From a virus: 37,677 nucleotides of DNA. A program made the translations under genes and the position numbers. Below are positions 8,936 to 37,146 of the stretch, piece after piece (the stretch's first letter is position 1; every line of letters starts with the position of its first letter). The notes beneath the pieces are model-generated. The model ran no database searches. It was given only the letters and a program-made list of their open reading frames with translations, and had not been told where the DNA came from. The stretch is taken from UHGV virus genome UHGV-0146994; one strand, written 5' to 3'.

Positions 8936-9350
8936 ATGTAGCCCTCCCGTTCCATCCGTACATTTGTTCGATTTAAGTGGGTGATATAATCATAACTCTT
9001 TCTCTCCTTTCTTTCAAGGATAATCGAACAAATGTTTACTTTTAGTAAATTATTCTCAACGGATAATTTGTATACAATATAATTATAGTATATTTTCAAC
9101 AATTGTGTCTGGTAAAATTTGGCATCAATACTTCTTAATGATTTTTTATAAACTAATTTAAGTATTATTTATATACTTTCCACAACATATTGGTAGTTTA
9201 TGGCTTTTTTTGTCCTCGAATGGTACGTTTTTGACCTTTAGCGGAACTAACAATTTTTAAACTTTGTTACTTTTGCCAACAAGATGCGGTTAAAATAGCC
9301 TGAAGGCATTTTAATAAAATTATATTCGAATGAGGAAGGAGATTTACACT

Positions 9351-10364
9351 ATGGCACTTATTAAATGTCCCGACTGCGGGAAGGAATTTTCAGATCAGGC
9401 AACACGCTGTCCTAATTGTGGCAGGCCTAATTCCATGAACCAGCAGCAACCAAAAACCAGCCCAATCGGAGTTTCCAATTCACCAACTAATGGATACCGC
9501 CCCAATACGGTGACATCCCAATCTGTAAAAAAGGAATCCGGTTTAGGAATCGCTGCACTTGTATTTTCAATCCTTGGCTGTACTTTTATCATAGGAGCCA
9601 TCCTTGCAATCATCGATTTATGCAAAAAGGATGATAATAAAAAGCATACATTATCTAAGGTTGCTTTGATCGTAGCTGGAATATGGTTAATTATTGGGAT
9701 TATCGGCGCTGCAAGTGGCAACGGGAAAGACCCTGAAACAGCAACAAACTCTGCTGCAGTGATAGAATCAGACACTAATGATGTTCTTGAGAAAACGGAA
9801 GAAACAGAACAAAAGGAAATTAAAGAAACGACTTCAGAAGCCAGTGATAATGAATCTTCCATTGAAGCAACTTCAGAAGCTATCAATAAGGAGCCTTCCG
9901 AAGACAATATTCCCACAGAATATAAATCCGCTTTAAATAAAGCTTATACATATAGTCAGACAATGTCTATGTCAAAAGCTGGGATTTATGATCAACTCAC
10001 CTCTGAGTATGGTGAAAAATTTTCTGCCGAAGCAGCACAATATGCAATTGATAATATGGAAGTAGACTGGAAAGCAAACGCATTGGAAAAAGCGAAAACT
10101 TACAGTGATACGATGTATATGTCAAAATTGGGAGTATATAACCAGCTCATTTCTGAATATGGTGAAAAATTCACTGAAGAGGAAGCTCAATATGCTGTAG
10201 ACAATGTCGAAGCAGATTGGAAGAAAAATGCACTTGAAAAGGCAAAAACCTATCAGCAATCAATGGATATGTCTCCCGAAGCAATTCGTGACCAGCTCGT
10301 TTCTGATTATGGAGAACAGTTTACCAAAGAAGAAGCTGACTATGCAATAGAACATCTTGAATAA
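9351..10364 (+). CDS. Ltp-family surface protein (superinfection exclusion-like) with N-terminal zinc ribbon and TM helices
   Basis: CPDC..CPNC; two hydrophobic helices; three repeats of AL.KA.TY...M.MS...YDQL.SEYGEKF..E.AQYA. Confidence 0.85.
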   Translation: MALIKCPDCGKEFSDQATRCPNCGRPNSMNQQQPKTSPIGVSNSPTNGYRPNTVTSQSVKKESGLGIAALVFSILGCTFIIGAILAIIDLCKKDDNKKHTLSKVALIVAGIWLIIGIIGAASGNGKDPETATNSAAVIESDTNDVLEKTEETEQKEIKETTSEASDNESSIEATSEAINKEPSEDNIPTEYKSALNKAYTYSQTMSMSKAGIYDQLTSEYGEKFSAEAAQYAIDNMEVDWKANALEKAKTYSDTMYMSKLGVYNQLISEYGEKFTEEEAQYAVDNVEADWKKNALEKAKTYQQSMDMSPEAIRDQLVSDYGEQFTKEEADYAIEHLE

Positions 10365-10477: not shown

Positions 10478-11854
10478 ATGAAAGATAAGATAATACGCTG
10501 TGCAATCTATGACCGCGTCTCGACAGAGGGTCAGGTGAAAGATGGGCTATCCCTTGATGCCCAGGAGGAGGCCCTTACTGAGTATGCTTTGTCACATCAT
10601 TATAAAATAGTAGATTATTACGCGGATGAGGGGATTACTGCCAGGAAGAAGATGCAGAATCGGAAAGACCTAATCCGGCTGCTGAATGATGTCAAGGCAG
10701 ATAAGATAGACCTCATTCTTGTAACCAAGCTGGACCGCTGGTTCCGAAATATAAAAGATTACCATAACACGCAGGCGATTCTTGAGGCGCATAATTGTAA
10801 CTGGAAAACCATTTTTGAGGAATATGATACATCCACTTCCAATGGCCGATTTGCAATCAATATTATGCTTTCCGTCAACGAAAACGAATGTGACCGGGAT
10901 TCGGACCGTATAAAAAATGTTTTCGAGTACAAGAAAAAACAAAGAGAACATTTGAACGGGAAGCCGGCTTATGGATATATTTCGGTTAATAAAAAGCTTG
11001 TCAAGGATCCTGAAACAAAGTATATAGTTGAGGATACCATTGAGCATTATTTTAGCTGCTATTCAAAAAAAGCAACCGTAAAATATATTCTTAGTAAATA
11101 TGCAAATGAGCAGAATCCGCCAACAATGTATCAGATTAACCGCATTCTGACCTGTGAGACATACACTGGCCGGAAATACGGTATTGATAATTACTGCGAG
11201 GCTTACATAACCCAGGAGCAGTACAAAAAAATAGTTTCCACGTCTGATGCTAAAATCATTCCGCATCAGACAAAACCATTCCTTTTCTCTTCCATGATTA
11301 AGTGTCCGATTTGCGGAAAAAATATGTCTGGTTTTGTGAAGCGCCAGAAATTAAAAAATGGGAATGTCAGCGAGTACAAAAGATATCGCTGCGGAGCAAA
11401 GTTTACAGCATATCACAATGGGGCCTGCATATCAGAGTCAGTTATAGAAGCATATCTGCTGGATAATGTGATGGGCGAACTTAATCTGGAGCTACTGCAG
11501 ATAAAAACAAAGGAACAGGAAGAAAAACAAAAGAAACCTGCTTCCAATCCTGTGAAAATAATGAATGAGATAAACCGGCTGAATCTGATGTATCAGAAAG
11601 GCCGCATAGACGATGAATATTATGACAAACAGTATGCTATACTGAATGAGAAACTCTCTGCCGCCCAACAGCCGCAGGAGCACAGAACCATAGAAAACTA
11701 TACATCTATCATGGAAACATTAAATGATGGCTGGTATGAAATGTATAAAAAGCTTGATATTACCCATAAAAAAGCCTTTTGGAAGGGCATAATAAAGGAA
11801 ATCTATATTGACAAGGAAAGCCGCCAAATATGCGGTTTTAAATTTCTGCTCTAG
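10478..11854 (+). CDS. large serine recombinase (phage integrase)
   Basis: YDRVSTEGQ catalytic Ser, KLDRWFRN, recombinase domain, CPIC...YRC zinc ribbon, coiled coil. Confidence 0.95.
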   Translation: MKDKIIRCAIYDRVSTEGQVKDGLSLDAQEEALTEYALSHHYKIVDYYADEGITARKKMQNRKDLIRLLNDVKADKIDLILVTKLDRWFRNIKDYHNTQAILEAHNCNWKTIFEEYDTSTSNGRFAINIMLSVNENECDRDSDRIKNVFEYKKKQREHLNGKPAYGYISVNKKLVKDPETKYIVEDTIEHYFSCYSKKATVKYILSKYANEQNPPTMYQINRILTCETYTGRKYGIDNYCEAYITQEQYKKIVSTSDAKIIPHQTKPFLFSSMIKCPICGKNMSGFVKRQKLKNGNVSEYKRYRCGAKFTAYHNGACISESVIEAYLLDNVMGELNLELLQIKTKEQEEKQKKPASNPVKIMNEINRLNLMYQKGRIDDEYYDKQYAILNEKLSAAQQPQEHRTIENYTSIMETLNDGWYEMYKKLDITHKKAFWKGIIKEIYIDKESRQICGFKFLL

Positions 11855-11902
11855 GGTGTAGTAACATATATTACACTGTTGAGTAATAATTTTTACTACA
11901 CC
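11855..11902. other. attP-like site for the serine integrase
   Basis: 48-bp imperfect palindrome GGTGTAGTAA..TATTAC..GT..GTAATA..TTACTACACC, symmetric about 11878-11879, starting right after the integrase stop. Confidence 0.75.
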
Positions 11903-11935
11903 TCATAGTGTAATTGCTTATGCTTCTCTCCTTGT

Positions 11936-12265
11936 ATAAATAGCGATTTAGGTGGGTATGAGTTTGATACGATAAACGGAGTCCCCAGTTATAAGGCAGG
12001 TGCAGATGCAGCATGGGTCCCATTTAAGCGGGAGCCAATAATTGAAAAAGCTTCCTTTTCGTGGGCCTATTCACCTTCCCAGACATTTCCTGCAAAGGAA
12101 GGATATAAAATCGTGGGGTTGTATGCAGATATTACAGGCATTAACTCACAAAATGCTGTGAACATAAATTTTGGCATAAGCAAAAACTTAGCAGCTGGTA
12201 GGATATCAATATCAGGGCAGACCTATGTAAATATAATGGGAGCGTTTTATTGTATTTACGCTTGA
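11936..12265 (+). other. silent tail-fibre C-terminal cassette D
   Basis: Open frame INSDLGGYEFDTINGVPSYKAGADAAWVPFK...FYCIYA* starting at site TAAATAGCGATTTA (11937-11950); no own start or RBS. Confidence 0.8.
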
Positions 12266-12276
12266 TAAAGCGGCCT

Positions 12277-12660
12277 TTATGGAATTAACTCAATCCGTAA
12301 CATGATATTAGGATTAACCGTATCTCCTTTGTAAAGTACCTGTAATTTATCAGATGCCAAAGAACTTACATCATAAGTGCCATCCGCTGTTATTAATTGA
12401 GTGCCGCATGTAACCTGATAACCATAAGGCCCCAAATTTGTAATTCTAATTTTTGAATAATTGGAATAATCAAAATTATTAAGCACAAATGTGGAGTAAC
12501 GAGTTACGTTGATACCAGAAAATGCCGCAGATGCTGTGCCATCCATCAGCACCAGTGTATTGCTAAAAGGGAGCCATGCATCAGCACCTTTTTGCCGATA
12601 TACGCCTTTCCCGCCCTGAAGGTCAAACTCAATTTGTCCGTTGGCTAAATCGTGATTTAA
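12277..12660 (-). other. silent tail-fibre C-terminal cassette C
   Basis: LNHDLANGQIEFDLQGGKGVYRQKGADAWLPF...LRIELIP* from site TAAATCACGATTTA (12646-12659); paralog of cassette B. Confidence 0.85.
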
Positions 12661-12782
12661 AGAGGCCTGCAGGTATTCACCACAGGCCCCAATAATTTTT
12701 TATAATCTTTAACTTTTTTCTTACTTATGTTACAATCTTTGTGTCGGGGAGCGGTGGCAAGCCCGCCCTCCCTTGTTTTCCC

Positions 12783-12989
12783 TTAGCCTATTCTTTTTTC
12801 CAGTGCTTCTGTTTTCTTAATCATGATTTCATGAATCCGTTCTACTTCATCAAGAATCATATCATCCATTGCTTTAAGTTCTGCAGTGCTTTTTGCCTGT
12901 TGCCTTTTTAAATTTTTAACTTCTGTTTCTAAATCTACCATTTTTTCAAGGATTAAGTCTAATTTTTGGCTGTCCGTCATATTTTCCAT
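12783..12989 (-). CDS. small coiled-coil hypothetical protein
   Basis: Heptad-rich ORF; promoter TTGATA(13065-13060)-17 bp-TATAAT(13042-13037). Confidence 0.7.
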   Translation of the reverse strand: MENMTDSQKLDLILEKMVDLETEVKNLKRQQAKSTAELKAMDDMILDEVERIHEIMIKKTEALEKRIG

Positions 12990-13043
12990 TTATATATCCC
13001 TTTCTTGTTAGGTTGCTTGCCTCTCTAACTATCTTTATTATAC

Positions 13044-13427
13044 TATATAGCATGTTATATATCAATGGCAAATCTATACAAATATATAACTTGTTATATA
13101 TCTAATTTTACTCTAACCCATCACTTGCAATTTTTTCATCCATACTTTGTAATATGAATGAGCGTAAAGACATTCCTGCCCTTTCGGCTGCTTTATTATA
13201 TCTGTCTTTTTCTTCTTTTTTTATTCTAATAGTAATTGGAGCCAATGTTTTAAGATATTCCTTTGTCGCTCTAGCCTGAGCATCGGTATAGTTTTTTCCC
13301 ACTTCTTCACCTTCCTTCCTATTTTATAAATATAACACACATTAATTATAACATGCTATATATAATATTAACATATAACATGTTATATATTTGTTAAATT
13401 TCTCATTGATATATAGCACGCTATATA
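13044..13427. repeat. five palindromic operator-like sites TATA(A/G)CATG(T/C)TATA
   Basis: Copies at 13044-13061, 13083-13100, 13347-13362, 13373-13388, 13410-13427; two lie in promoter spacers. Confidence 0.8.
13108..13302 (-). CDS. ribbon-helix-helix (Arc/antitoxin-like) regulator
   Basis: ITIRIKKEEKDRYNKAAERAGMSLRSFI beta-alpha-alpha pattern. Confidence 0.75.
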   Translation of the reverse strand: MGKNYTDAQARATKEYLKTLAPITIRIKKEEKDRYNKAAERAGMSLRSFILQSMDEKIASDGLE

Positions 13428-13551
13428 CTATAATAATATTATCAAGAACAGGAACACAAAATAAAAGCCGCCGACACTCCTACCACAGACCGCCGACGGC
13501 ACCAATCAAAGAAAGGCAGCTCCATTATATCAGGAGCGAAGGGTAAACACA

Positions 13552-13845
13552 ATGAAAAAAATCAGTAAAAAAGCTCTTATGTCCACAATCAAAAAAGAGT
13601 ATAAAAAAGCGCATGAATTTTGCAAGGCCGGCCGTGGCCGGAGCTATGCCATAATGCTCGATACAGATGATGCGCAGATATGGTCAGACGTATTTTGGAA
13701 CAAGGGAGACTACAAGAATTATCATTCTGCTACAATAGTGCGTCTGGACTACGAAGCGCGCCTACAGTGGTATACCACGCCTTATATTGTAGAGGCCTAT
13801 TTTGTGACGCCACAGAAAAGCTGCAAAAGGCTGGATGGACTCTAA
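13552..13845 (+). CDS. hypothetical protein (3' end possibly frameshifted)
   Basis: Promoter TTGATA(13406)-17 bp-TATAAT(13429); an alternative frame after the T-run near 13800 gives DATEKLQKAGWTLID*. Confidence 0.6.
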   Translation: MKKISKKALMSTIKKEYKKAHEFCKAGRGRSYAIMLDTDDAQIWSDVFWNKGDYKNYHSATIVRLDYEARLQWYTTPYIVEAYFVTPQKSCKRLDGL

Positions 13846-13920
13846 TAGATTAATTCCAATTCAATCTGGCCGGCAGAAAAATTTCAGATGATAAAATAGA
13901 TTAAAGAAAGAAGAGTGTAT

Positions 13921-14824
13921 ATGGGACTTACTTATTCTGAATTATTACAAGAATGGTTTAATCATCATACTGTAGAGATCGAAGAATCAACTGCTTATAA
14001 CTACAAAAAATCTCTTCCCTATGTTGCAGAAGTACTGGGACAATATGATATTGAAAAAAATAACAGAGCATATGATATATGACTATGTATTAATCCTGCT
14101 GCATAGTAGCTTGGCTTATTCATCGACTCGTGTATACTGTAAGGTCATAAAATTAAGCCTACGGTATGCATTAAGACGTGGTTATATCCGATACAATCCC
14201 GCAGAATGCGTCAAAATGCCGAAGCGAACTCAGGCGGAAATCCAAGTCTATACATGGCAGGAAATATCCCATCTTATAACCACAGATGGTCCTGACTGGG
14301 TAAAAAATGGTATAATCATTGCTTTCCGAACTGGTATGAGACCCAGCGAGATCTACGCATTAAAATGGACAGATATTAATCTGTCAAAAAATTACATATC
14401 TATTCAACGCGCAATATCTCGATCCGGATCCAAGACAAAACTTACTAAAACGCCTGCGGGAAGAAGGCGTGTTGATATAGATAGCCTTCTAGCACAGCAC
14501 CTTATGGAAATGAAAAAGCACAAACAATTATATCAAAAATATGTTTTCCCCTCCCCACCACATGGCCGCCGTAATTATCGTATTCCATGGAATGTGTCAA
14601 AAATTCTCCACGGAATGTGTGACAAAGCAGGAATTGAATATCGAAATTTTTATTCACTTCGACATTCTCATGCAACCCTACTTCTTGAGATGGACATACA
14701 TCCCAAAATTGTTCAGGAAAGAATGGGACATAGTGATATTAAAATAACTATGGATACATATAGCCATGTTACTCCTACGATACAGCAAAAGGCTGTATCC
14801 GCAATGGAAACAATTCCTATGTAA
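13921..14824 (+). pseudogene. tyrosine recombinase/integrase with +1 frameshift in an A7 tract
   Basis: N-terminal frame MGLTYSELLQEWF...LGQYDIEK joins ITEHMIYDYV only if one A of 14054-14060 is removed; TGMRPSE, YSLRHSHA, GHS and DTYSH catalytic motifs. Confidence 0.8.
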
Positions 14825-14851
14825 AAGAGGGGGATCTCCCCCTCTTTTTTT
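14824..14851. terminator. bidirectional intrinsic terminator
   Basis: AAAAGAGGGGG-ATCT-CCCCCTCTTTTTTT between convergent genes. Confidence 0.85.
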
Positions 14852-14864
14852 TGCGGCAAACACA

Positions 14865-16073
14865 TCACTCCAGTACCATCACCCGTCTGAGCACCGTCTG
14901 CATCCCGTGCTGAGCCAACAACTGCCCAAAGTTGGATGCATCCGTCCAGGTATAAGACAGGCCGGCTATATTGGCCCACAAGCTACCATCCGGCGCGTGG
15001 GATGCAGAACCATCAAACCGGATAAGGTTCCAGCGTTCAACTACCGAACAAAGCTTGCTTACATAATCCTTTGAAGTTGCATAGTCGCCGGCCTTTATAA
15101 TCTCAAACGCCCGTCGATAATCCCTGCAGCCGACTACACCGGCATACCGCAGGTTGCTTCCTGCCCTGGCCCCGGCCAGATATGAAGAGTGATCAGCCAG
15201 ATAAGCGGCCACTGATGGATATGCCCGGAAAGCCGCCGTTATAGTGTAATAGCTGCCGTCCTCCCGTTGCTCTGCCGTATCCTTGATGTAGACACGGCCG
15301 TCCCATGCAGAGGCCCAGGTATTTCCAGACAGTTCCGCTTTCATCCCGCCCAAGTTTAGGGCATTCAGCGCCAGCTCTGATTTTCCATATCCAGACTCAA
15401 GAATAGACTGCGCCGCTGTGACGCTTGCCAAGATACCAGATACCTGCATATCTGCTGCCGCAAGTCTCCCGATATACTCCACAAATTCCTCCCGGCTCAT
15501 TGCCGCCAGCCGTGCAGCATCTGCCGTGGTTTCCGCAGCCTGTCCGGTTATGCCGGCCACAATAGCCGCTGCCATCCGGTCGGCATTGTACAATGCCACA
15601 TCCTCCGGGTCATCCACAAAACAGCACTCTACCAACAGGGCTGGCGCTCTGGTATGTTTGAGCACATATAATCCCGGCCGCTCCTTGACTCCGCGGTTAC
15701 TGTATCCCAGCGCCGCTATGCTGTCCACAATCTGCTGTGCCCAGGGCACTGCCTTGGATGTCTTGCTATACAACAGGACTTCCGTTCCTGTTGTCTGCCC
15801 ATCCGGTACTGGAGACGCAGCGGCGTTGAAATGGATAGATACATCCAAATCCACCTCATGGCTATTACAGGCCGCCACAATACGCTTGAGTACATCCTCC
15901 TTGCTCGTGCCGTTGTTGCAGGTGCAGTCATGCACTGTATGGCCCATAGCCGTTAGTTGTGCCACTACCCTATCCTTAACCGCTCTTGCCTCCGTTGACT
16001 CCCGGATAAGCCCCACAGCGCCACAGGCGGTCATTCCGTCCGGGTTATGTCCAGCATGTATGTTTATTTTCAT
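14865..16073 (-). CDS. endolysin: Amidase_3 plus glucosaminidase (GH73-like) domain
   Basis: HAGH..E, SIHFNA, LVECCFVD amidase motifs; AQSILESGYG and YAT...Y GH73 motifs. Confidence 0.92.
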   Translation of the reverse strand: MKINIHAGHNPDGMTACGAVGLIRESTEARAVKDRVVAQLTAMGHTVHDCTCNNGTSKEDVLKRIVAACNSHEVDLDVSIHFNAAASPVPDGQTTGTEVLLYSKTSKAVPWAQQIVDSIAALGYSNRGVKERPGLYVLKHTRAPALLVECCFVDDPEDVALYNADRMAAAIVAGITGQAAETTADAARLAAMSREEFVEYIGRLAAADMQVSGILASVTAAQSILESGYGKSELALNALNLGGMKAELSGNTWASAWDGRVYIKDTAEQREDGSYYTITAAFRAYPSVAAYLADHSSYLAGARAGSNLRYAGVVGCRDYRRAFEIIKAGDYATSKDYVSKLCSVVERWNLIRFDGSASHAPDGSLWANIAGLSYTWTDASNFGQLLAQHGMQTVLRRVMVLE

Positions 16074-16100
16074 AGATTGGCCTCCTTAAAGGGAAGGAGA

Positions 16101-16535
16101 TTACTCCCCTTCCACCTTCTCCGCTTTCTGTGTAAGAATCTCTATTGCCTTTTTAATTACAGATGGAAGAGGAATCCCCATCAATCCAGCATTTTCTACG
16201 ATTGATATCAGTTCATTGGCTATAAATCCAATAATGACAGCATTGCGGATATAATCTACCCCTATCGCCAGATCTAACCGATGCGCGACCAAAACAAACA
16301 GCAGCGTCATGCCTTTCCGGCAAAGCCCCTTCCATCCGGCGCGGCTCTCTAAAGCGCCGTTCTTACTCTTCGGACTCTCCTTAAATACCCCCGCTACAAC
16401 AAGACCTGCAATATAATCAATTGACATAAAAATAACCAGTGTAATCAAAGCGCTGTCCCATCCTCCAAGTAAGTATGCAATTCCACTTCCAACAACTCCC
16501 GCAGCCGTACAGGTTATTTCTTTAATTCCTTTCAT
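16101..16535 (-). CDS. holin (phage holin 4 / toxin-secretion family)
   Basis: LLGGWD..L..L...M.IDY..G, GWKGL.RK, NELISIVENAG; AGGAGG RBS before MKGIK. Confidence 0.9.
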   Translation of the reverse strand: MKGIKEITCTAAGVVGSGIAYLLGGWDSALITLVIFMSIDYIAGLVVAGVFKESPKSKNGALESRAGWKGLCRKGMTLLFVLVAHRLDLAIGVDYIRNAVIIGFIANELISIVENAGLMGIPLPSVIKKAIEILTQKAEKVEGE

Positions 16536-16545
16536 TTGATACCTC

Positions 16546-16983
16546 CTATATGAATGTGTAATGTGGCCTTTCCCTCTGCTGAAGGTTGGGAAAGAATTTA
16601 TGGAAACATCTATAAAAAAGATACCGGATCCAGTCATCCAGAATTATCCCGGCGGCCGAAATCGGTATCCATAATAAAAAGTAGTACAAGCATATCTGGC
16701 CCAGCAAATTAAAAGGCTGGTCGGAGTAGTCCCAAACCTGCCAGCCAAGCAATAAATTAACGATACAGCCCACAATAAATTCCAGGGCCGTTATTATGCA
16801 GGCACTTATGACGGCCTGCCGCAACAGCGGCATATCCCAAGGGAGGAAATGCTCATTGAGCAAGCCCATGATTACGAAACATCCCCCACCCAAATAAAAC
16901 ATGGTCCAGTGTGTCCAGCCGCGCCAAAATATCTCTATCCAGGTGTACAGCCTTCCTCCTATTAAAAAAAGTAGCACTTCCAT
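16546..16983 (-). CDS. membrane protein (CmpB/TMEM229-like)
   Basis: IEIFWRGWTHWTM, EFIVG, WDYS..PFNLLGQICL. Confidence 0.75.
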   Translation of the reverse strand: MEVLLFLIGGRLYTWIEIFWRGWTHWTMFYLGGGCFVIMGLLNEHFLPWDMPLLRQAVISACIITALEFIVGCIVNLLLGWQVWDYSDQPFNLLGQICLYYFLLWIPISAAGIILDDWIRYLFYRCFHKFFPNLQQRERPHYTFI

Positions 16984-16984
16984 A

Positions 16985-17695
16985 TTATTCCCCCGCCTGC
17001 GCTGCAATCATAACCTTTAACGGCTCACTCTGATACGCCTCTGGCAGCTCCATGCCGTAGGTAACTACTTCCACATCCTCCTTACTTTCCAGGCTACGGA
17101 TATATATTCGCAGATCCCGGAAGTATGTAACATGCCAGGTTACCCAGGCCATAGCCGCTGTTACAATCAGCTGCATGTCCGTATTGCTATAAAACTTGCA
17201 GTGTTCCATCTCATCCGATGTATGCCAGGGGATTGCCTCCTCCCCTGCAGCCACCTGGCTCTGAAGCCCTACAAGGCTTGTCTGATCATGCTCAGTCAAT
17301 GTGAAATGTTCCACTATGCCGTCCGTCAGTGCAACATTAACACCACTCTGGATCATGGCCTGTTGCACCGCATTCATTTCCTGAACTTTCGCCTCACGTA
17401 CCTCTTCCAGCGTAGGCACATAAGGCTCCGGCTCTGGAATCGGTTCAGGTGGCACATATATTTCTCCGTTATCTGATAGCTCAAACTCAGTTTCACTAAT
17501 GCGCTTATACAGTGTGACAAATGTGTCATACCTTCCCGGAGGCGTATCTGTTTCTTCGGGAAAAAGATAAAAATAAAATCCAGTGACTTCATCATCCGTC
17601 ACTGGGTTCTCTGTTTTTATGTTTACAATATGTTCCCTCGGCTTTACAATTGCTGGGATATAATCTTCTGAATTTATGAATTTTATATAACCCAT
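16985..17695 (-). CDS. tail fibre-associated protein (DUF4376-like, possible assembly chaperone)
   Basis: PEPIPEPEP linker then TLEEVREAK; located after the fibre genes. Confidence 0.55.
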   Translation of the reverse strand: MGYIKFINSEDYIPAIVKPREHIVNIKTENPVTDDEVTGFYFYLFPEETDTPPGRYDTFVTLYKRISETEFELSDNGEIYVPPEPIPEPEPYVPTLEEVREAKVQEMNAVQQAMIQSGVNVALTDGIVEHFTLTEHDQTSLVGLQSQVAAGEEAIPWHTSDEMEHCKFYSNTDMQLIVTAAMAWVTWHVTYFRDLRIYIRSLESKEDVEVVTYGMELPEAYQSEPLKVMIAAQAGE

Positions 17696-17751
17696 AAATT
17701 TCTCCTTTCTTTCTACGATATTTTGTTAATAGTTAATTTGATTTACTTCAG

Positions 17752-18138
17752 TTAAATCACGATTTAGCGCAGGGGCAGATCGAGTTTGACGTTGATGCTG
17801 CCGGCAAGGGCTTTTACCGTAAACGAGGTGCTGATACATGGCTCCCTTTTAACAGGAATCTTGTGCTTATGAATGGTACAGCTTCCTATGCTTACTCAGG
17901 AGTCAGCGGTACATACGCAGCATTGTTTGAGCTGGACAATTTTGACTTCACAAATTACAGACAGATTTCAATAAAAAATCTGTCAAATTTTAGCTATGAA
18001 GTAACCTGTGGCACAAAAGTATTTTCGTCAGACGGTACATATGATATAAGCGATTTAATGGCGGCAAAACTTAGGGTTATGTATCATGGTAATGTAGGGA
18101 ATCCGCCCATACAGCTCAGAATAGAACTGATACCGTAA
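17752..18138 (+). other. silent tail-fibre C-terminal cassette B (inverted)
   Basis: LNHDLAQGQIEFDVDAAGKGFYRKRGADTWLPF...LRIELIP* from site TAAATCACGATTTA (17753-17766). Confidence 0.88.
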
Positions 18139-18143
18139 TAGGA

Positions 18144-18614
18144 TTAGGCAGTTATGGCAATGACAGTGCCGGTCCATGTCATAGCCAAACAATGCTGTGT
18201 AGTACCAATACTTAATAATAATTTTCCGGTTGCTGTATTGTAATCTTTGGCTATAGTACATATCCCACCGGCGGTACTACCGAGCCGCAACTGTGCATTC
18301 GAAGGTTCAAAATAGCATGCCACAATTTTGCTGACATCAAGTCCCATATCATTCAGGTCGATTTCATTTTGATATGTATTTCCGCTATTACCCGTGGTGA
18401 CAGTAACTGTTTTGGTTGCTATTTTCATGATACCCTCCTTCAATTCCTGTAAATCGTGAATTAACTGTTTAGTCACCAACGCATCCGGTGTATATCCTGC
18501 CTCAGTAATTGCCGCATTATCGTTTACATTTTTTATAACTTTAGTTGGATTCAATCCGTTGTAATACTTATTCCCCTCTGAATCCTCGATTATCATATCT
18601 TTTACATATGCCAT
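18144..18614 (-). CDS. expressed tail-fibre/adhesin gene: ~50-aa constant N-terminus plus variable cassette A
   Basis: GGAGGG RBS; internal site TAATTCACGATTTA (18463-18450) encoding LIHDL in the same frame as the silent cassettes. Confidence 0.8.
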   Translation of the reverse strand: MAYVKDMIIEDSEGNKYYNGLNPTKVIKNVNDNAAITEAGYTPDALVTKQLIHDLQELKEGIMKIATKTVTVTTGNSGNTYQNEIDLNDMGLDVSKIVACYFEPSNAQLRLGSTAGGICTIAKDYNTATGKLLLSIGTTQHCLAMTWTGTVIAITA

Positions 18615-18629
18615 TCTTTATTCCCTCCC

Positions 18630-19331
18630 TCACAGAGTTTTGAAGAAAATATTTTTTTCGACACCGGATGCATAGGAAGCGCCTACTCTAATTCTGCCTC
18701 CGTCTTTCCCAGCCGGTCCCTGTGGCCCAGTCGGTCCGGCTGGTCCCTGCGGTCCCTGTGGTCCTGTTGCTCCAGTTGCACCTGTTGCCCCCTTTGGTCC
18801 TGTGGCACCTGCTGCCCCAGTTTCTCCTTTAGGCCCCTTAATACTGCATAAATAAATCCATTTAGCGGCCGCTGCTGCACCTGCAACAGTACATTTATAA
18901 ACATTTCCTGTGCTGCTATTAAGATACAAGTCATTTACGCGTGCGCTTGACACTCCACTTCCGCTAAAGATTGCAGCAGTCGTAGATGTTCCTGTAATAC
19001 CTGTTCCGTGATACCATAAACTTCCCGGAGTACCTGCTGCCCCCTGTGGTCCCGTTGGTCCCCGATCTCCGGTCGCACCTTTTTGTCCTGCCGGTCCCTG
19101 TGGGCCTGTGGCTCCAACCGGTCCCTGCGGGCCTGTGTCACCTGTCGTTCCTTTTGGACCTTGCGGGCCTGTGGCTCCAGTCTGTCCTTTTAATGTCCCA
19201 TTATCCAGTTTTTGCTGAAATGTTTGTCCATCTGCAAAATAAACCAATTCCGCAACAGTCTGTACATCTGCATCCCCTAACAAATTTCCATCATCATCGT
19301 ATAATTGTACTCTTACTTTATAAGCAGCCAT
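18630..19331 (-). CDS. collagen-like tail fibre protein
   Basis: Two Gly-X-Y repeat blocks. Confidence 0.88.
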
Positions 19332-33974: not shown

Positions 33975-34997
33975 TCATGCTATACATGCCTTATGCACCT
34001 GCCGGAGCTGTCCCGACGTCTGTGCAGCATAGTATCCCTTGGTTACTGCCGTGCTTGCATGGCCTAACAGGTCCGCTATATCATCAAGGCTTGCCCCGTG
34101 CTGCCTCAGGCTGGAAGCCATTGTCTTGCGCATAAGGTGCGGATACACTCGGCGCCGCAACTCCGCCTTAGCCTTGATATCCTGCAACAAGTCCCGGAAG
34201 GCGCTCTCATGTATAGGCGTGGCAGGCTTGCGTAAGGACACAAACAGATACGGGCTGTCATCCTGCCGGCTGTCCAGATAGCGCTTGATGTGCACCCGGG
34301 CGGCATCATTAAGATATACCTCCCGGTACTCCCTGTCCTTGTGGCCGTAAATCATCAGCGACCCGGAAACAAAATCTATGTCAGCTATCTTGACATCCGG
34401 CACCTCTCCCACCCTGGCCCCGGTGCTCAGCAGGAATTCAAGCACAGCTCTCTCACGCTTGCCTTTCTGGGTATCCTGGTCGCATGCGGTACGTAGTTCT
34501 TCCACTTCCACACCCTGCAGAAAGTCAATCGGCTTCCGGGGAACCTTCTTTTTGGGAACATTTTCCACCGGATTCTGACTGATAAAATTACACCGGCGCA
34601 ACCATGTGAATACGGATGACAGGAACTGCCGCTCATTGTTGACACTCTGCGGGCTATTGGCCTTAAGCTTGCCCCGCGCAAACTCATTAAGGTAATATTC
34701 AATGTCCGTTGGAACCACATTACGCAGGTTTTTGTGGACTACATCCAGAAACATCCTCGCAGCCCGCATATACTGCTCTATGGTTTTACTGCTCAGGTCG
34801 CGCTTCTGCATGTTCAGGCGGATAGTGTCCAACATATACTGGTTATCATCCAGATCCGTTGACAGCGCAGTTTCCATACGGACCACCTCGACACTGTACA
34901 TTACGGCCAGCAGCACTTGCTCCAATGCGCGGAGCTGTTCCCTATTGATTACTTCCTGCATCTTTAATAACACGTCATTGATAAGCTGTTCTTTCAT
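33975..34997 (-). CDS. XerC/D-like tyrosine recombinase
   Basis: SAM-like N-domain (LS.KTI.QY), STGARVGE, GHKD, YPHLMRKT, LLGH, T..YY; catalytic set intact. Confidence 0.93.
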   Translation of the reverse strand: MKEQLINDVLLKMQEVINREQLRALEQVLLAVMYSVEVVRMETALSTDLDDNQYMLDTIRLNMQKRDLSSKTIEQYMRAARMFLDVVHKNLRNVVPTDIEYYLNEFARGKLKANSPQSVNNERQFLSSVFTWLRRCNFISQNPVENVPKKKVPRKPIDFLQGVEVEELRTACDQDTQKGKRERAVLEFLLSTGARVGEVPDVKIADIDFVSGSLMIYGHKDREYREVYLNDAARVHIKRYLDSRQDDSPYLFVSLRKPATPIHESAFRDLLQDIKAKAELRRRVYPHLMRKTMASSLRQHGASLDDIADLLGHASTAVTKGYYAAQTSGQLRQVHKACIA

Positions 34998-36049: not shown

Positions 36050-36135
36050 TTTCCCTATCTCCTTTATATAAATCCTCATTTACCATTCAACAGTTTCCCC
36101 AGGATAATAAGTCGGCTCCTTTTCTAAATCCTCAT

Positions 36136-36882
36136 TTAATGCATTAATATTTCAGGAAATTCCTGTGTCAATGGTTCTCCCCATATGTCCGTCAAACTAG
36201 ATTTCATAAATACTGGAATATCTACTTTGCGGCACTGCTCCACAATATCTTCTATCCACTCACGCTTCGGAATGACCTTATCCTTGCGCCTTCCCGTTTC
36301 CGCGCCAATGATAACCCACTCTACTCCACGAATATGGAAATCTGCAAATGGCTTTAGCAGCGGTTCAATGCTTATAAAAGTCTGAACAGAGTGGTGTGTT
36401 GAGAAAGAAAAATCTGTTCCCACAGGCCCTGTCTGCGACCAACCAAACCACATATTAGGCGGCATATAGCAGTTAAGTAGTTTCTCATACCGCTTTGGAT
36501 TCTTCGTAAGGAATAAATAGTTGTGCTGCGGAGCTTTTCCACATGCCTCAAACACTTCATAAATCCAAGAATCTGGCACCCAATCCCCGAACAGATCAGC
36601 CATTGAGCAGACAAAAATGTTCCTTGCCTTTCGGTTCTGATATTCGTTTAAGCGATATCTATGTAATGTCGGAACGAACCCATATGGGTACGGTTCTGAC
36701 CGCTCCTCCTCTGGCGCGTAAACTTTTTCGTCAAGCACATGGATTTTCCTATCATCCCACTTGTCCCCGTGAGAAGAAAACCTGTTTGCTATCCCTCTGG
36801 CATAACAGTATTCGCAACCATGCAGACAACCGGTAACCGGATTCCATGTGCTATCACACCAATCAATTTTTGTCTTATTCAT
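36136..36882 (-). CDS. DUF5131 / phage Gp37Gp68 family (radical-SAM-like)
   Basis: TKIDWCDSTWNPVTGC..GCEYCYA, IFVCSMADLF, LTKNP, SIEPLL, WVIIGAETG. Confidence 0.92.
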   Translation of the reverse strand: MNKTKIDWCDSTWNPVTGCLHGCEYCYARGIANRFSSHGDKWDDRKIHVLDEKVYAPEEERSEPYPYGFVPTLHRYRLNEYQNRKARNIFVCSMADLFGDWVPDSWIYEVFEACGKAPQHNYLFLTKNPKRYEKLLNCYMPPNMWFGWSQTGPVGTDFSFSTHHSVQTFISIEPLLKPFADFHIRGVEWVIIGAETGRRKDKVIPKREWIEDIVEQCRKVDIPVFMKSSLTDIWGEPLTQEFPEILMH

Positions 36883-37146
36883 AAATTCCCTTTCTGAGTT
36901 AAATTTTCATTTAACTACCATCCCGGTTCATTCACCGGAATGGTAAAAATCGTTTTGTTGAGGTCAACAAAACCTCATTTAAATTATTTAGTTGCAGGTA
37001 TCAGGACACAATATATTGTGTTATACATTTTACATTGCATATATATTGTATATATGTATTGACTTCCTAATACTTTTGTATATAATAAAAGATACAAAAC
37101 GTTACTTTATTGTAAAAACGCATCTGGCAGAAAGAGGAGGACTATT

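Follow-up and report, generated by a model that had tools for sequence, protein, structure and literature searches.

How can a temperate phage exchange the tip of a tail protein when half of its spare tips lie on the far side of its lysis genes? The question is raised by positions 11936–18614 of UHGV virus genome UHGV-0146994, a stretch of 37,677 nucleotides referred to here as the window, where one expressed gene and three silent cassettes form two pairs on either side of the holin and endolysin genes. The window encodes a temperate siphophage of Eisenbergiella type (terminase, portal, HK97-type capsid, tape measure, Dit, collagen-repeat fibre, holin, endolysin and a large serine integrase) and is probably a complete circular genome, as judged from the finding that its two ends adjoin in the relative G002. 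We consider it probable that this locus offers four C-terminal tips that are interchangeable at 14-bp sites, with crossover likely carried out by an Xer-like recombinase and with two crossovers likely required to bring a distal tip into use while the lysis genes are neither lost nor reversed. Comparison sequences are labelled P (proteins), L (loci), G (genomes) or X (sequencing runs), and the rearrangements are read from metagenome assemblies.

The expressed gene (18144–18614, minus strand) joins a 51-residue constant head to tip A (105 residues), and the silent tip cassettes are B (127 residues, 17755–18138, plus strand), C (126 residues, 12277–12657, minus strand) and D (108 residues, 11939–12265, plus strand), of which B and C are paralogues with 57–58% protein identity. 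Each site opens a frame of the corresponding number of codons, and all four frames are in one register, L-[IN]-[HS]-D-L. We find that the cassettes stand in two tail-to-tail pairs, as a preliminary description of this DNA held, and that B, C and D are start-less as it had proposed, with no ATG, GTG or TTG from the preceding in-frame stop to the site; an internal GTG yields 91-residue open reading frames (ORFs) in B and C. Read in the direction of the tail gene, the order is head, site 1, A; reversed B, site 2; a 5.1-kb block; site 3, C; reversed D, site 4; and integrase. This is the plan of a shufflon, in which a constant 5' part carries the site in frame and a copy of that site heads each of several silent 3' parts, and alternative arrangements in relatives (P0001 for the window head) break at the sites. 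Named homologues of the switched gene and cassettes come from Eisenbergiella porci and E. tayi.

Sites 1 (in the expressed gene, 18450–18463, minus strand), 2 (inner proximal, 17753–17766, plus strand) and 3 (inner distal, 12646–12659, minus strand) match the site pattern exactly and share the centre TCACGA, while site 4 (outer distal, 11937–11950, plus strand) has two mismatches to the pattern and the centre TAGCGA, unlike that of sites 1–3 at two of six bases. All four had been correctly placed and oriented; missed were a fifth, central site with a G+C-rich centre (TAAA-GCGGCC-TTTA, 12266–12279) between the stop codons of C and D, an internal tyrosine recombinase gene and eight sites among the early genes. 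The A/B junction (18136–18146) holds a degenerate central site with a 5-base centre, and a central TAA-N6-TTA junction is also present in pairs of L001–L005, L007 and L012. The outer sites are 6527 bp apart and the inner sites 5093 bp, and the direct pairs are separated by 5804 and 5816 bp. The general form of the site is a 14-bp dyad, TAAA-N6-TTTA, which occurs 13 times in the window, whereas 100 dinucleotide-shuffled versions contain 1.78 copies on average and never more than 7; the same dyad with other spacings (3–5 and 7–12) occurs 0–3 times each. In Eisenbergiella-type loci, 8 of 14 positions are invariant (n = 23 sites), and conservation falls off 4–5 bases out on either side of the site centre. 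Codon choice at the site is fixed, and the left arm is retained in non-coding positions. Site centres agree within a phage in most relatives, which suggests that the centres matter, yet the expressed pair of L005 has a one-base mismatch.

Evidence for exchange at these sites comes from chimeric proteins. All but two of 38 candidate proteins carry the 51-residue head at 87–100% identity and then split at the site into 23 tip groups, with junction residues LIQNL in 25, LIQDL in 7, LIHDL in 2 and LIRDL and LISDL in 1 each; the constant head, variable tips and position of the junction bear out the earlier proposal that the sites are crossover points at which the C-terminus is exchanged. Each of the four window tips is found joined to a head. 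P0001 is the window head joined at the site to C with no mismatches and with the window's own centre, and two further proteins, P0136 and P0137, combine close heads with C. B is fused to close head variants in P0033 and P0140–P0143, and the sequence after the site is identical in P0140–P0142. D-like tips at 86–90% identity are found on the window-type head in P0009, P0010, P0017 and P0021, and D at 100% on another head in P0117. The head occurs with five junction types, and two close head variants, P0013 and P0137, have TAGCGA-type junctions. C and D are also borne by an unrelated 74-residue head.

Whole pairs are exchanged as well. The D/C pair of the window occupies the expressed slot in runs X2, X3, X4 and X14, four of the eight runs compared, and two partners of D are found in both X2 and X3, diverging at the central site; in runs X12 and X9, nothing matched the distal pair. 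With P0001, these arrangements support the claim that the distal cassettes come into use. The D/C pair borne by phages with other heads shows 3 differences in 724 bp. The pair shared by L003 and L004 is present in myophage G001, where it is joined to a third head, and in L092, where it is flipped and joined to the second, 74-residue head. A pair including tip A (94% DNA identity) was also observed among the early genes of G001 (L001 10002–10638), ~21 kb from the tail gene and bounded by one tail-type and one early-type site.

The pair–lysis genes–pair layout recurs in five other lineages, namely L005, G001 (L013), G003 (L012), L069 and L127/L128/L130, where L069 shows a single distal site before its contig ends and G001 has at least two distal pairs plus one more pair among the early genes. 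L127, L128 and L130 are 97–99% identical, and whole pairs have exchanged places across the lysis block: the expressed pair of L127 (8445–9858) is found in the distal slot of L130 (15459–16872) at 98.7% identity with its ends at sites, the third pair of L127 (18977–19950) is the expressed pair of L128 at 99.0%, and the middle is colinear between L127 and L130 at 97.4%. The 5.7-kb middle of this family (recombinase, DUF4376, endolysin, CmpB-like protein and holin) is unchanged in orientation. A compact family, whose middle lacks lysis genes, has equal pairs in both slots and in both orientations with changing partners, and L118 is the exact product of an inner inversion, its middle being 99.96% identical to those of L119 and L121 but inverted between flanks of 100% identity. 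Moved pairs mostly, though not always, retain their orientation, which in these alignments fits two inversions or excision followed by re-entry alike. Comparison of cassette order among relatives, a check that the preliminary description had put forward, reveals alternative arrangements with breakpoints at the sites, and as read from these assemblies the net outcome is a swap of pairs with the lysis block left in its orientation. L127 also has, between its second and third pairs, a 262-residue ORF with a head-like start (16478–17266), a possible second constant region.

We propose that the A/B switch would be a single 0.7-kb inversion between sites with identical centres, and that the distal pair would form a reserve beyond the lysis genes. 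Two routes would swap the pairs and return the 5.1-kb block to its former state: inversion at both the outer and the inner sites, or excision through one of the direct pairs with re-entry through the other. Crossover of site 2 with site 3 would reverse the block with the tips unaltered, and crossover of site 1 with site 3 would create head–C at the cost of a 5.8-kb deletion; that recombination of the same-orientation sites at 18450 and 12646 would delete the lysis block had been recognized before. We infer that such single events, leaving a reversed block or the loss of 5.8 kb, are dead ends, because the lysis genes would be severed from the late operon; P0001 could be one such deletion product. 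The central sites between stop codons likely let single tips trade partners. Since the centre of site 4 is unlike the others and most relatives match centres within a phage, the distal pair may be used rarely in the window genome, with the outer inversion a rare event, and the system as a whole would presumably be active there.

The same dyads extend beyond the tail locus. On the minus strand of the early region, sites are found at 42, 280, 560, 1713 and 2025 (42–2038) and at 36069, 36125 and 36900, with one more at 36968 that has one mismatch (36069–36981). The eight exact sites between early genes are nearly coding-independent dyads with centres unlike those of the tail sites. Blocks of high identity to G001, G002 and G006 end ≤5 bases from a site in 7 of 7 cases (one mismatch allowed; background 8.6%), although these 7 ends represent three distinct borders only. 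Two shared early blocks are in opposite order in the window vs. G002. An equal early border has different centres across phages, and centres are therefore not strictly retained.

Which enzyme acts on these sites? The best candidate is an intact Xer-like tyrosine recombinase gene at the end of the early region (33975–34997, minus strand), ~15 kb from the tail locus, whose product shows the family's catalytic motifs and has its highest scores, which stay below cut-off, against the XerA/XerD NCBIfam models. Homologues are present in G001, G002, G003, G005, G006 and G008, one of them weak; apart from G001, they were found in 4 of 5 records in one scan and in 2 of 5 in another. An Xer-like recombinase, intact in the L090 and L127 families, lies between the pairs in all 18 loci fetched with it, and the product of 33975–34997 is the window's only match to these between-pair enzymes, at 31–32% identity; orthology of early and tail types is not resolvable from a recombinase tree of 13 rows with no proper outgroup. 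This candidate most likely acts on the tail locus from a distance.

It is possible, if somewhat unlikely, that another enzyme does the rearranging, be it the internal recombinase made by slippage, host XerC/XerD or the enzyme of another prophage. The internal gene (13921–14824, plus strand), an integrase-type tyrosine recombinase frameshifted in the window, sits inside the locus and has intact homologues in L004 and L012; G009, which has a pair, gives no match to the early recombinase; and an account of a bifidophage locus proposed that its invertase is supplied in trans (PMC6109161). Set against this, two split layouts lack the internal gene, G001 altogether and L005 in its middle, and it belongs to a different subfamily, with 22–26% identity to the Xer-like group that includes the between-pair recombinases of relatives. 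On these grounds we rejected it as the main candidate for the conserved enzyme, and it is probably a passenger. The run of seven A in this gene (14054–14060) may reflect sequencing error, decay or slippage. The equivalent place after the lysin is taken in L005 by a serine recombinase split into two overlapping ORFs (13928–14799).

We think it unlikely that only A and B flip in this phage, with the D/C pair acquired from another phage, locked out by its centre and reaching the expressed slot by rare exchange between co-resident phages or over evolution. In favour of this reading, TAGCGA is the centre type throughout L012 and L088, phages with other heads carry an almost unchanged D/C pair, the internal recombinase gene is disrupted and the A/B central site is degenerate. 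P0001, however, unites the exact window head and the window centre with C, the TAGCGA-type junctions on the close heads of P0013 and P0137 indicate that unlike centres do cross, and strains that are 97–99% alike swap pairs across the lysis block.

In its original form, the proposal was that a single 6.5-kb inversion installs D and that phages propagate with reversed lysis genes, which we now regard as very unlikely. The sites permit it, the middle of L118 is reversed, and the accessory block found next to the L005 distal pair stands reversed beside the proximal pair of L004, so that an inverted middle is seen in L118 and probable in L004. The middle of L118 lacks lysis genes, however, L004 is cut short on one side and stops before a lysin is reached, and no lasting flip of the lysis genes appears in any of the eight split loci where these genes are visible (window, L005, L012, L013, L069, L127, L128 and L130). 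At 2868–2881 of L004, the end of a DUF4406 gene and an arm derived from the distal inner site together make up a hybrid site, which suggests cryptic-site recombination; the idea that this gene is an early-type cassette at a tail site was dropped, a similar small gene with no Pfam match being present after the L120 holin. Finally, exchange by homologous or micro-homology recombination at a conserved coding joint, with no site-specific enzyme, is barely credible: the tips do share short similar N-terminal stretches and the site codes for a predicted coiled-coil-like joint, but codon choice is fixed, the left arm persists in non-coding positions, breakpoints coincide with the 14-bp sites and leave the flanks specific to each slot in place, and an equal dyad marks early-gene borders and stop–stop junctions.

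What the exchanged tips do is suggested by structural models. The gene at 18144–18614 has no Pfam or PHROG match, and the earlier label of tail fibre stands on its position, with the collagen-repeat tail fibre gene (18630–19331, minus strand) directly upstream, and on the predicted fold. The tip A model (mean predicted local distance difference test score (pLDDT) of 58) is a lectin-like β-sandwich that best matches tailspike C-terminal and H-type lectin domains, with a discoidin match (Z 7.0, root-mean-square deviation (rmsd) 2.7, 88 aligned) and further matches to phage tail proteins (E 5e-4). The model of head–C (P0001; pLDDT 60 overall, 69–92 over the last 80 residues) likewise ends in a predicted β-sandwich, for which Foldseek returned nothing at E ≤ 0.001. 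The best Atlas score, 0.83, is a lead only. The tips would likely bind receptors; of the earlier claim that inversion swaps a receptor-binding C-terminus, the swap itself is borne out and the binding is putative.

A number of observations weigh against the reading of four tips exchanged by an Xer-like enzyme through paired crossovers, or against parts of it. P0001 is on a 1816-bp contig and may be a deletion product or stem from another strain, and all routes to C or D that avoid deletion use site 4, with its centre mismatched at two of six bases. The between-pair Xer-like enzymes are 31–34% identical to that of 33975–34997, no higher than the identity among early-type copies (29–46%); a recombinase linked to the tail genes, as in L090 and L127, is lacking in the window; and G009, which lacks a match to 33975–34997, is complete. 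The split is optional, with a single pair in G002 (complete), G004, G005 and G006. Among 79 endolysin-anchored loci, many of which end shortly past the lysin, a pair was detected in 6 and was split in 3, and since the detector, which reported pairs in 16 of 94 sequences (two being the same phage), missed the pairs of L001 and L007, these counts are lower bounds. The structural match of tip A to 9qrm (Z 8.0, rmsd 2.4, 84 aligned) is at the level, Z 8, that the tool calls common, tip C has no specific match (best Z 6.6), and confidence in both models is low, with mean pLDDT under 60. The best sequencing run holds 0.17 of the window's words, and all runs compared are contigs of other phages, silent on switching in the window phage or on habitat; all rearrangements are comparisons of metagenome assemblies, with possible mis-joins at short repeats. 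Scans of genome contigs found no relative, searches of viral sequences with the head alignment, with C and with D yielded no locus that could be used, and GenBank phages gave no match.

The block between the pairs contains, as had been described, both the endolysin (amidase and glucosaminidase, 14865–16073, minus strand) and the holin (Phage_holin_4_1, 16101–16538, minus strand). It also holds a CmpB-like membrane protein gene and a DUF4376 gene (16546–17695, minus strand), the equal two genes being found between pairs in L120 and L127, and three small accessory ORFs of 68, 64 and 97 residues (12783–13845), the 64-residue product being ribbon-helix-helix-like; the genes in between had been called morons, and they include the recombinase gene at 13921–14824. 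A short G+C-rich stretch at 12725–12794 is found at 89–94% identity in L012, L013, L014 and many short run contigs and may be a terminator or small RNA; Rfam gave no match in 11800–14000. Around the ribbon-helix-helix gene lies a 42-bp inverted repeat (13035–13076/13395–13436, 86%) whose arms carry outward near-consensus promoters; promoter-like sites are at chance level, 20 vs. 18.6. A 32-bp inverted match (13865–13896/20377–20408, 88%) links an intergenic stretch to a tail gene. Beyond the distal pair is the large serine integrase (458 residues, 10478–11854, plus strand; Resolvase, Recombinase and Zn ribbon domains; phrog_95 integrase), next to which lies a gene for an Ltp-like superinfection-exclusion lipoprotein with three repeats (9330–10364). 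Directly after the integrase gene, an inverted repeat with 10-bp arms (11855–11902) is the likely attP that had been placed beside the distal pair; the repeat and the contiguity of the window ends in a relative are in line with that position, and its function as attP is putative.

If the proposed mechanism holds, deletion here would remove needed genes, a simple answer to a question raised by the Rin shufflon: how a tyrosine recombinase acting without arms avoids loss of cassettes. One head with 23 tip groups and equal tips on three unrelated heads point to a shared tip pool among gut Lachnospiraceae phages, and a change of tip would likely alter which bacteria the phage binds. The short natural sites with variable centres are testable for orthogonal recombination, and scans limited to nearby inverted repeats would miss distal reserves of this kind. 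More tentatively, and in our view doubtfully, one phage Xer-like recombinase might run a genome-wide address system in which centres set the partners, the early array is reordered, whole tip pairs are traded past the lysis genes by double crossover, the lysis genes filter out single crossovers and tips move between unrelated siphophages and myophages at these sites.

How does this locus compare with known systems? In Xer/dif and pdif-module systems, Xer-type enzymes act on short dyads whose centre is 6 bp long, and the modules are bounded by sites. The window sites appear to resemble these dyads and differ in that their arms are conserved over only 4–5 bases and that they lie inside coding sequence. 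Tail shufflons as such are already known. Gin, Cin and Min are described as serine recombinases (PMC6109161), and the likeness to Gin/Cin fibre switches that had been drawn does not hold at the level of the enzyme, since the evidence here points to an Xer-like tyrosine recombinase; a small serine invertase by the segment is lacking, the only serine recombinase found in the window being the 458-residue integrase, and the split serine recombinase of the L005 middle is absent from it. In the FR-phi shufflon, the tail-fibre isoform is described as deciding the infected host (PMC13418256), and the BV01-like shufflon as compact, 1.7 kb, and beside its recombinase (PMC13596623). With Gin/Cin/Min and these two the window shares the swap of tail-fibre C-termini by inversion; as described in those accounts, their loci are compact and adjoin the recombinase, whereas the window's is split by lysis genes. 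Two other reports deal with compact tail inversions or are general surveys (PMC9881135, PMC5903667). Our literature search returned no report of a shufflon that spans lysis genes or belongs to a Lachnospiraceae phage, and supplements outside that search may hold such loci.

The closest relatives in design are two. The Rin shufflon of Bifidobacterium prophages is reported to have a constant N-terminus with an in-gene site, silent C-termini and an XerD-like tyrosine recombinase (PMC6109161), and Rin in Eggerthella lenta prophages is reported with H-type lectin tips (PMC8778435). The window shares with Rin the constant N-terminus with an in-gene site, the silent variable C-termini, a candidate XerD-like tyrosine recombinase and a second position type, after the 3' end, that re-primes cassettes. 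Rin occupies a compact locus edged by its recombinase gene and uses an asymmetric 11-bp rix site, whereas the window has TAAA-N6-TTTA dyads, which are no asymmetric 11-bp repeat and whose centre varies among phages; its cassettes are paired tail to tail around a central site, half of the cassettes lie beyond a 5.1-kb lysis block, no intact recombinase adjoins them, and the locus ends at the serine integrase. The R64/R721/TP114 pilV shufflon is described as a set of invertible segments of two convergent ORFs, with sfx sites that combine a 7-bp core with a right arm conserved over 12 bp, that works with a tyrosine recombinase supplied in trans (PMC9045228). Convergent ORF pairs each led by a site are found in the window, upholding the comparison with R64 segments; sfx-like arms are not, as conservation drops after 4–5 bases on each side, and R64 is a plasmid pilin system with contiguous segments, whereas the window pairs are split by lysis genes. 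As far as the genome and the published descriptions allow comparison, the split across lysis genes differs from compact phage shufflons, and the system works like Rin, has the paired segments of R64 and departs from both in its sites and its layout.

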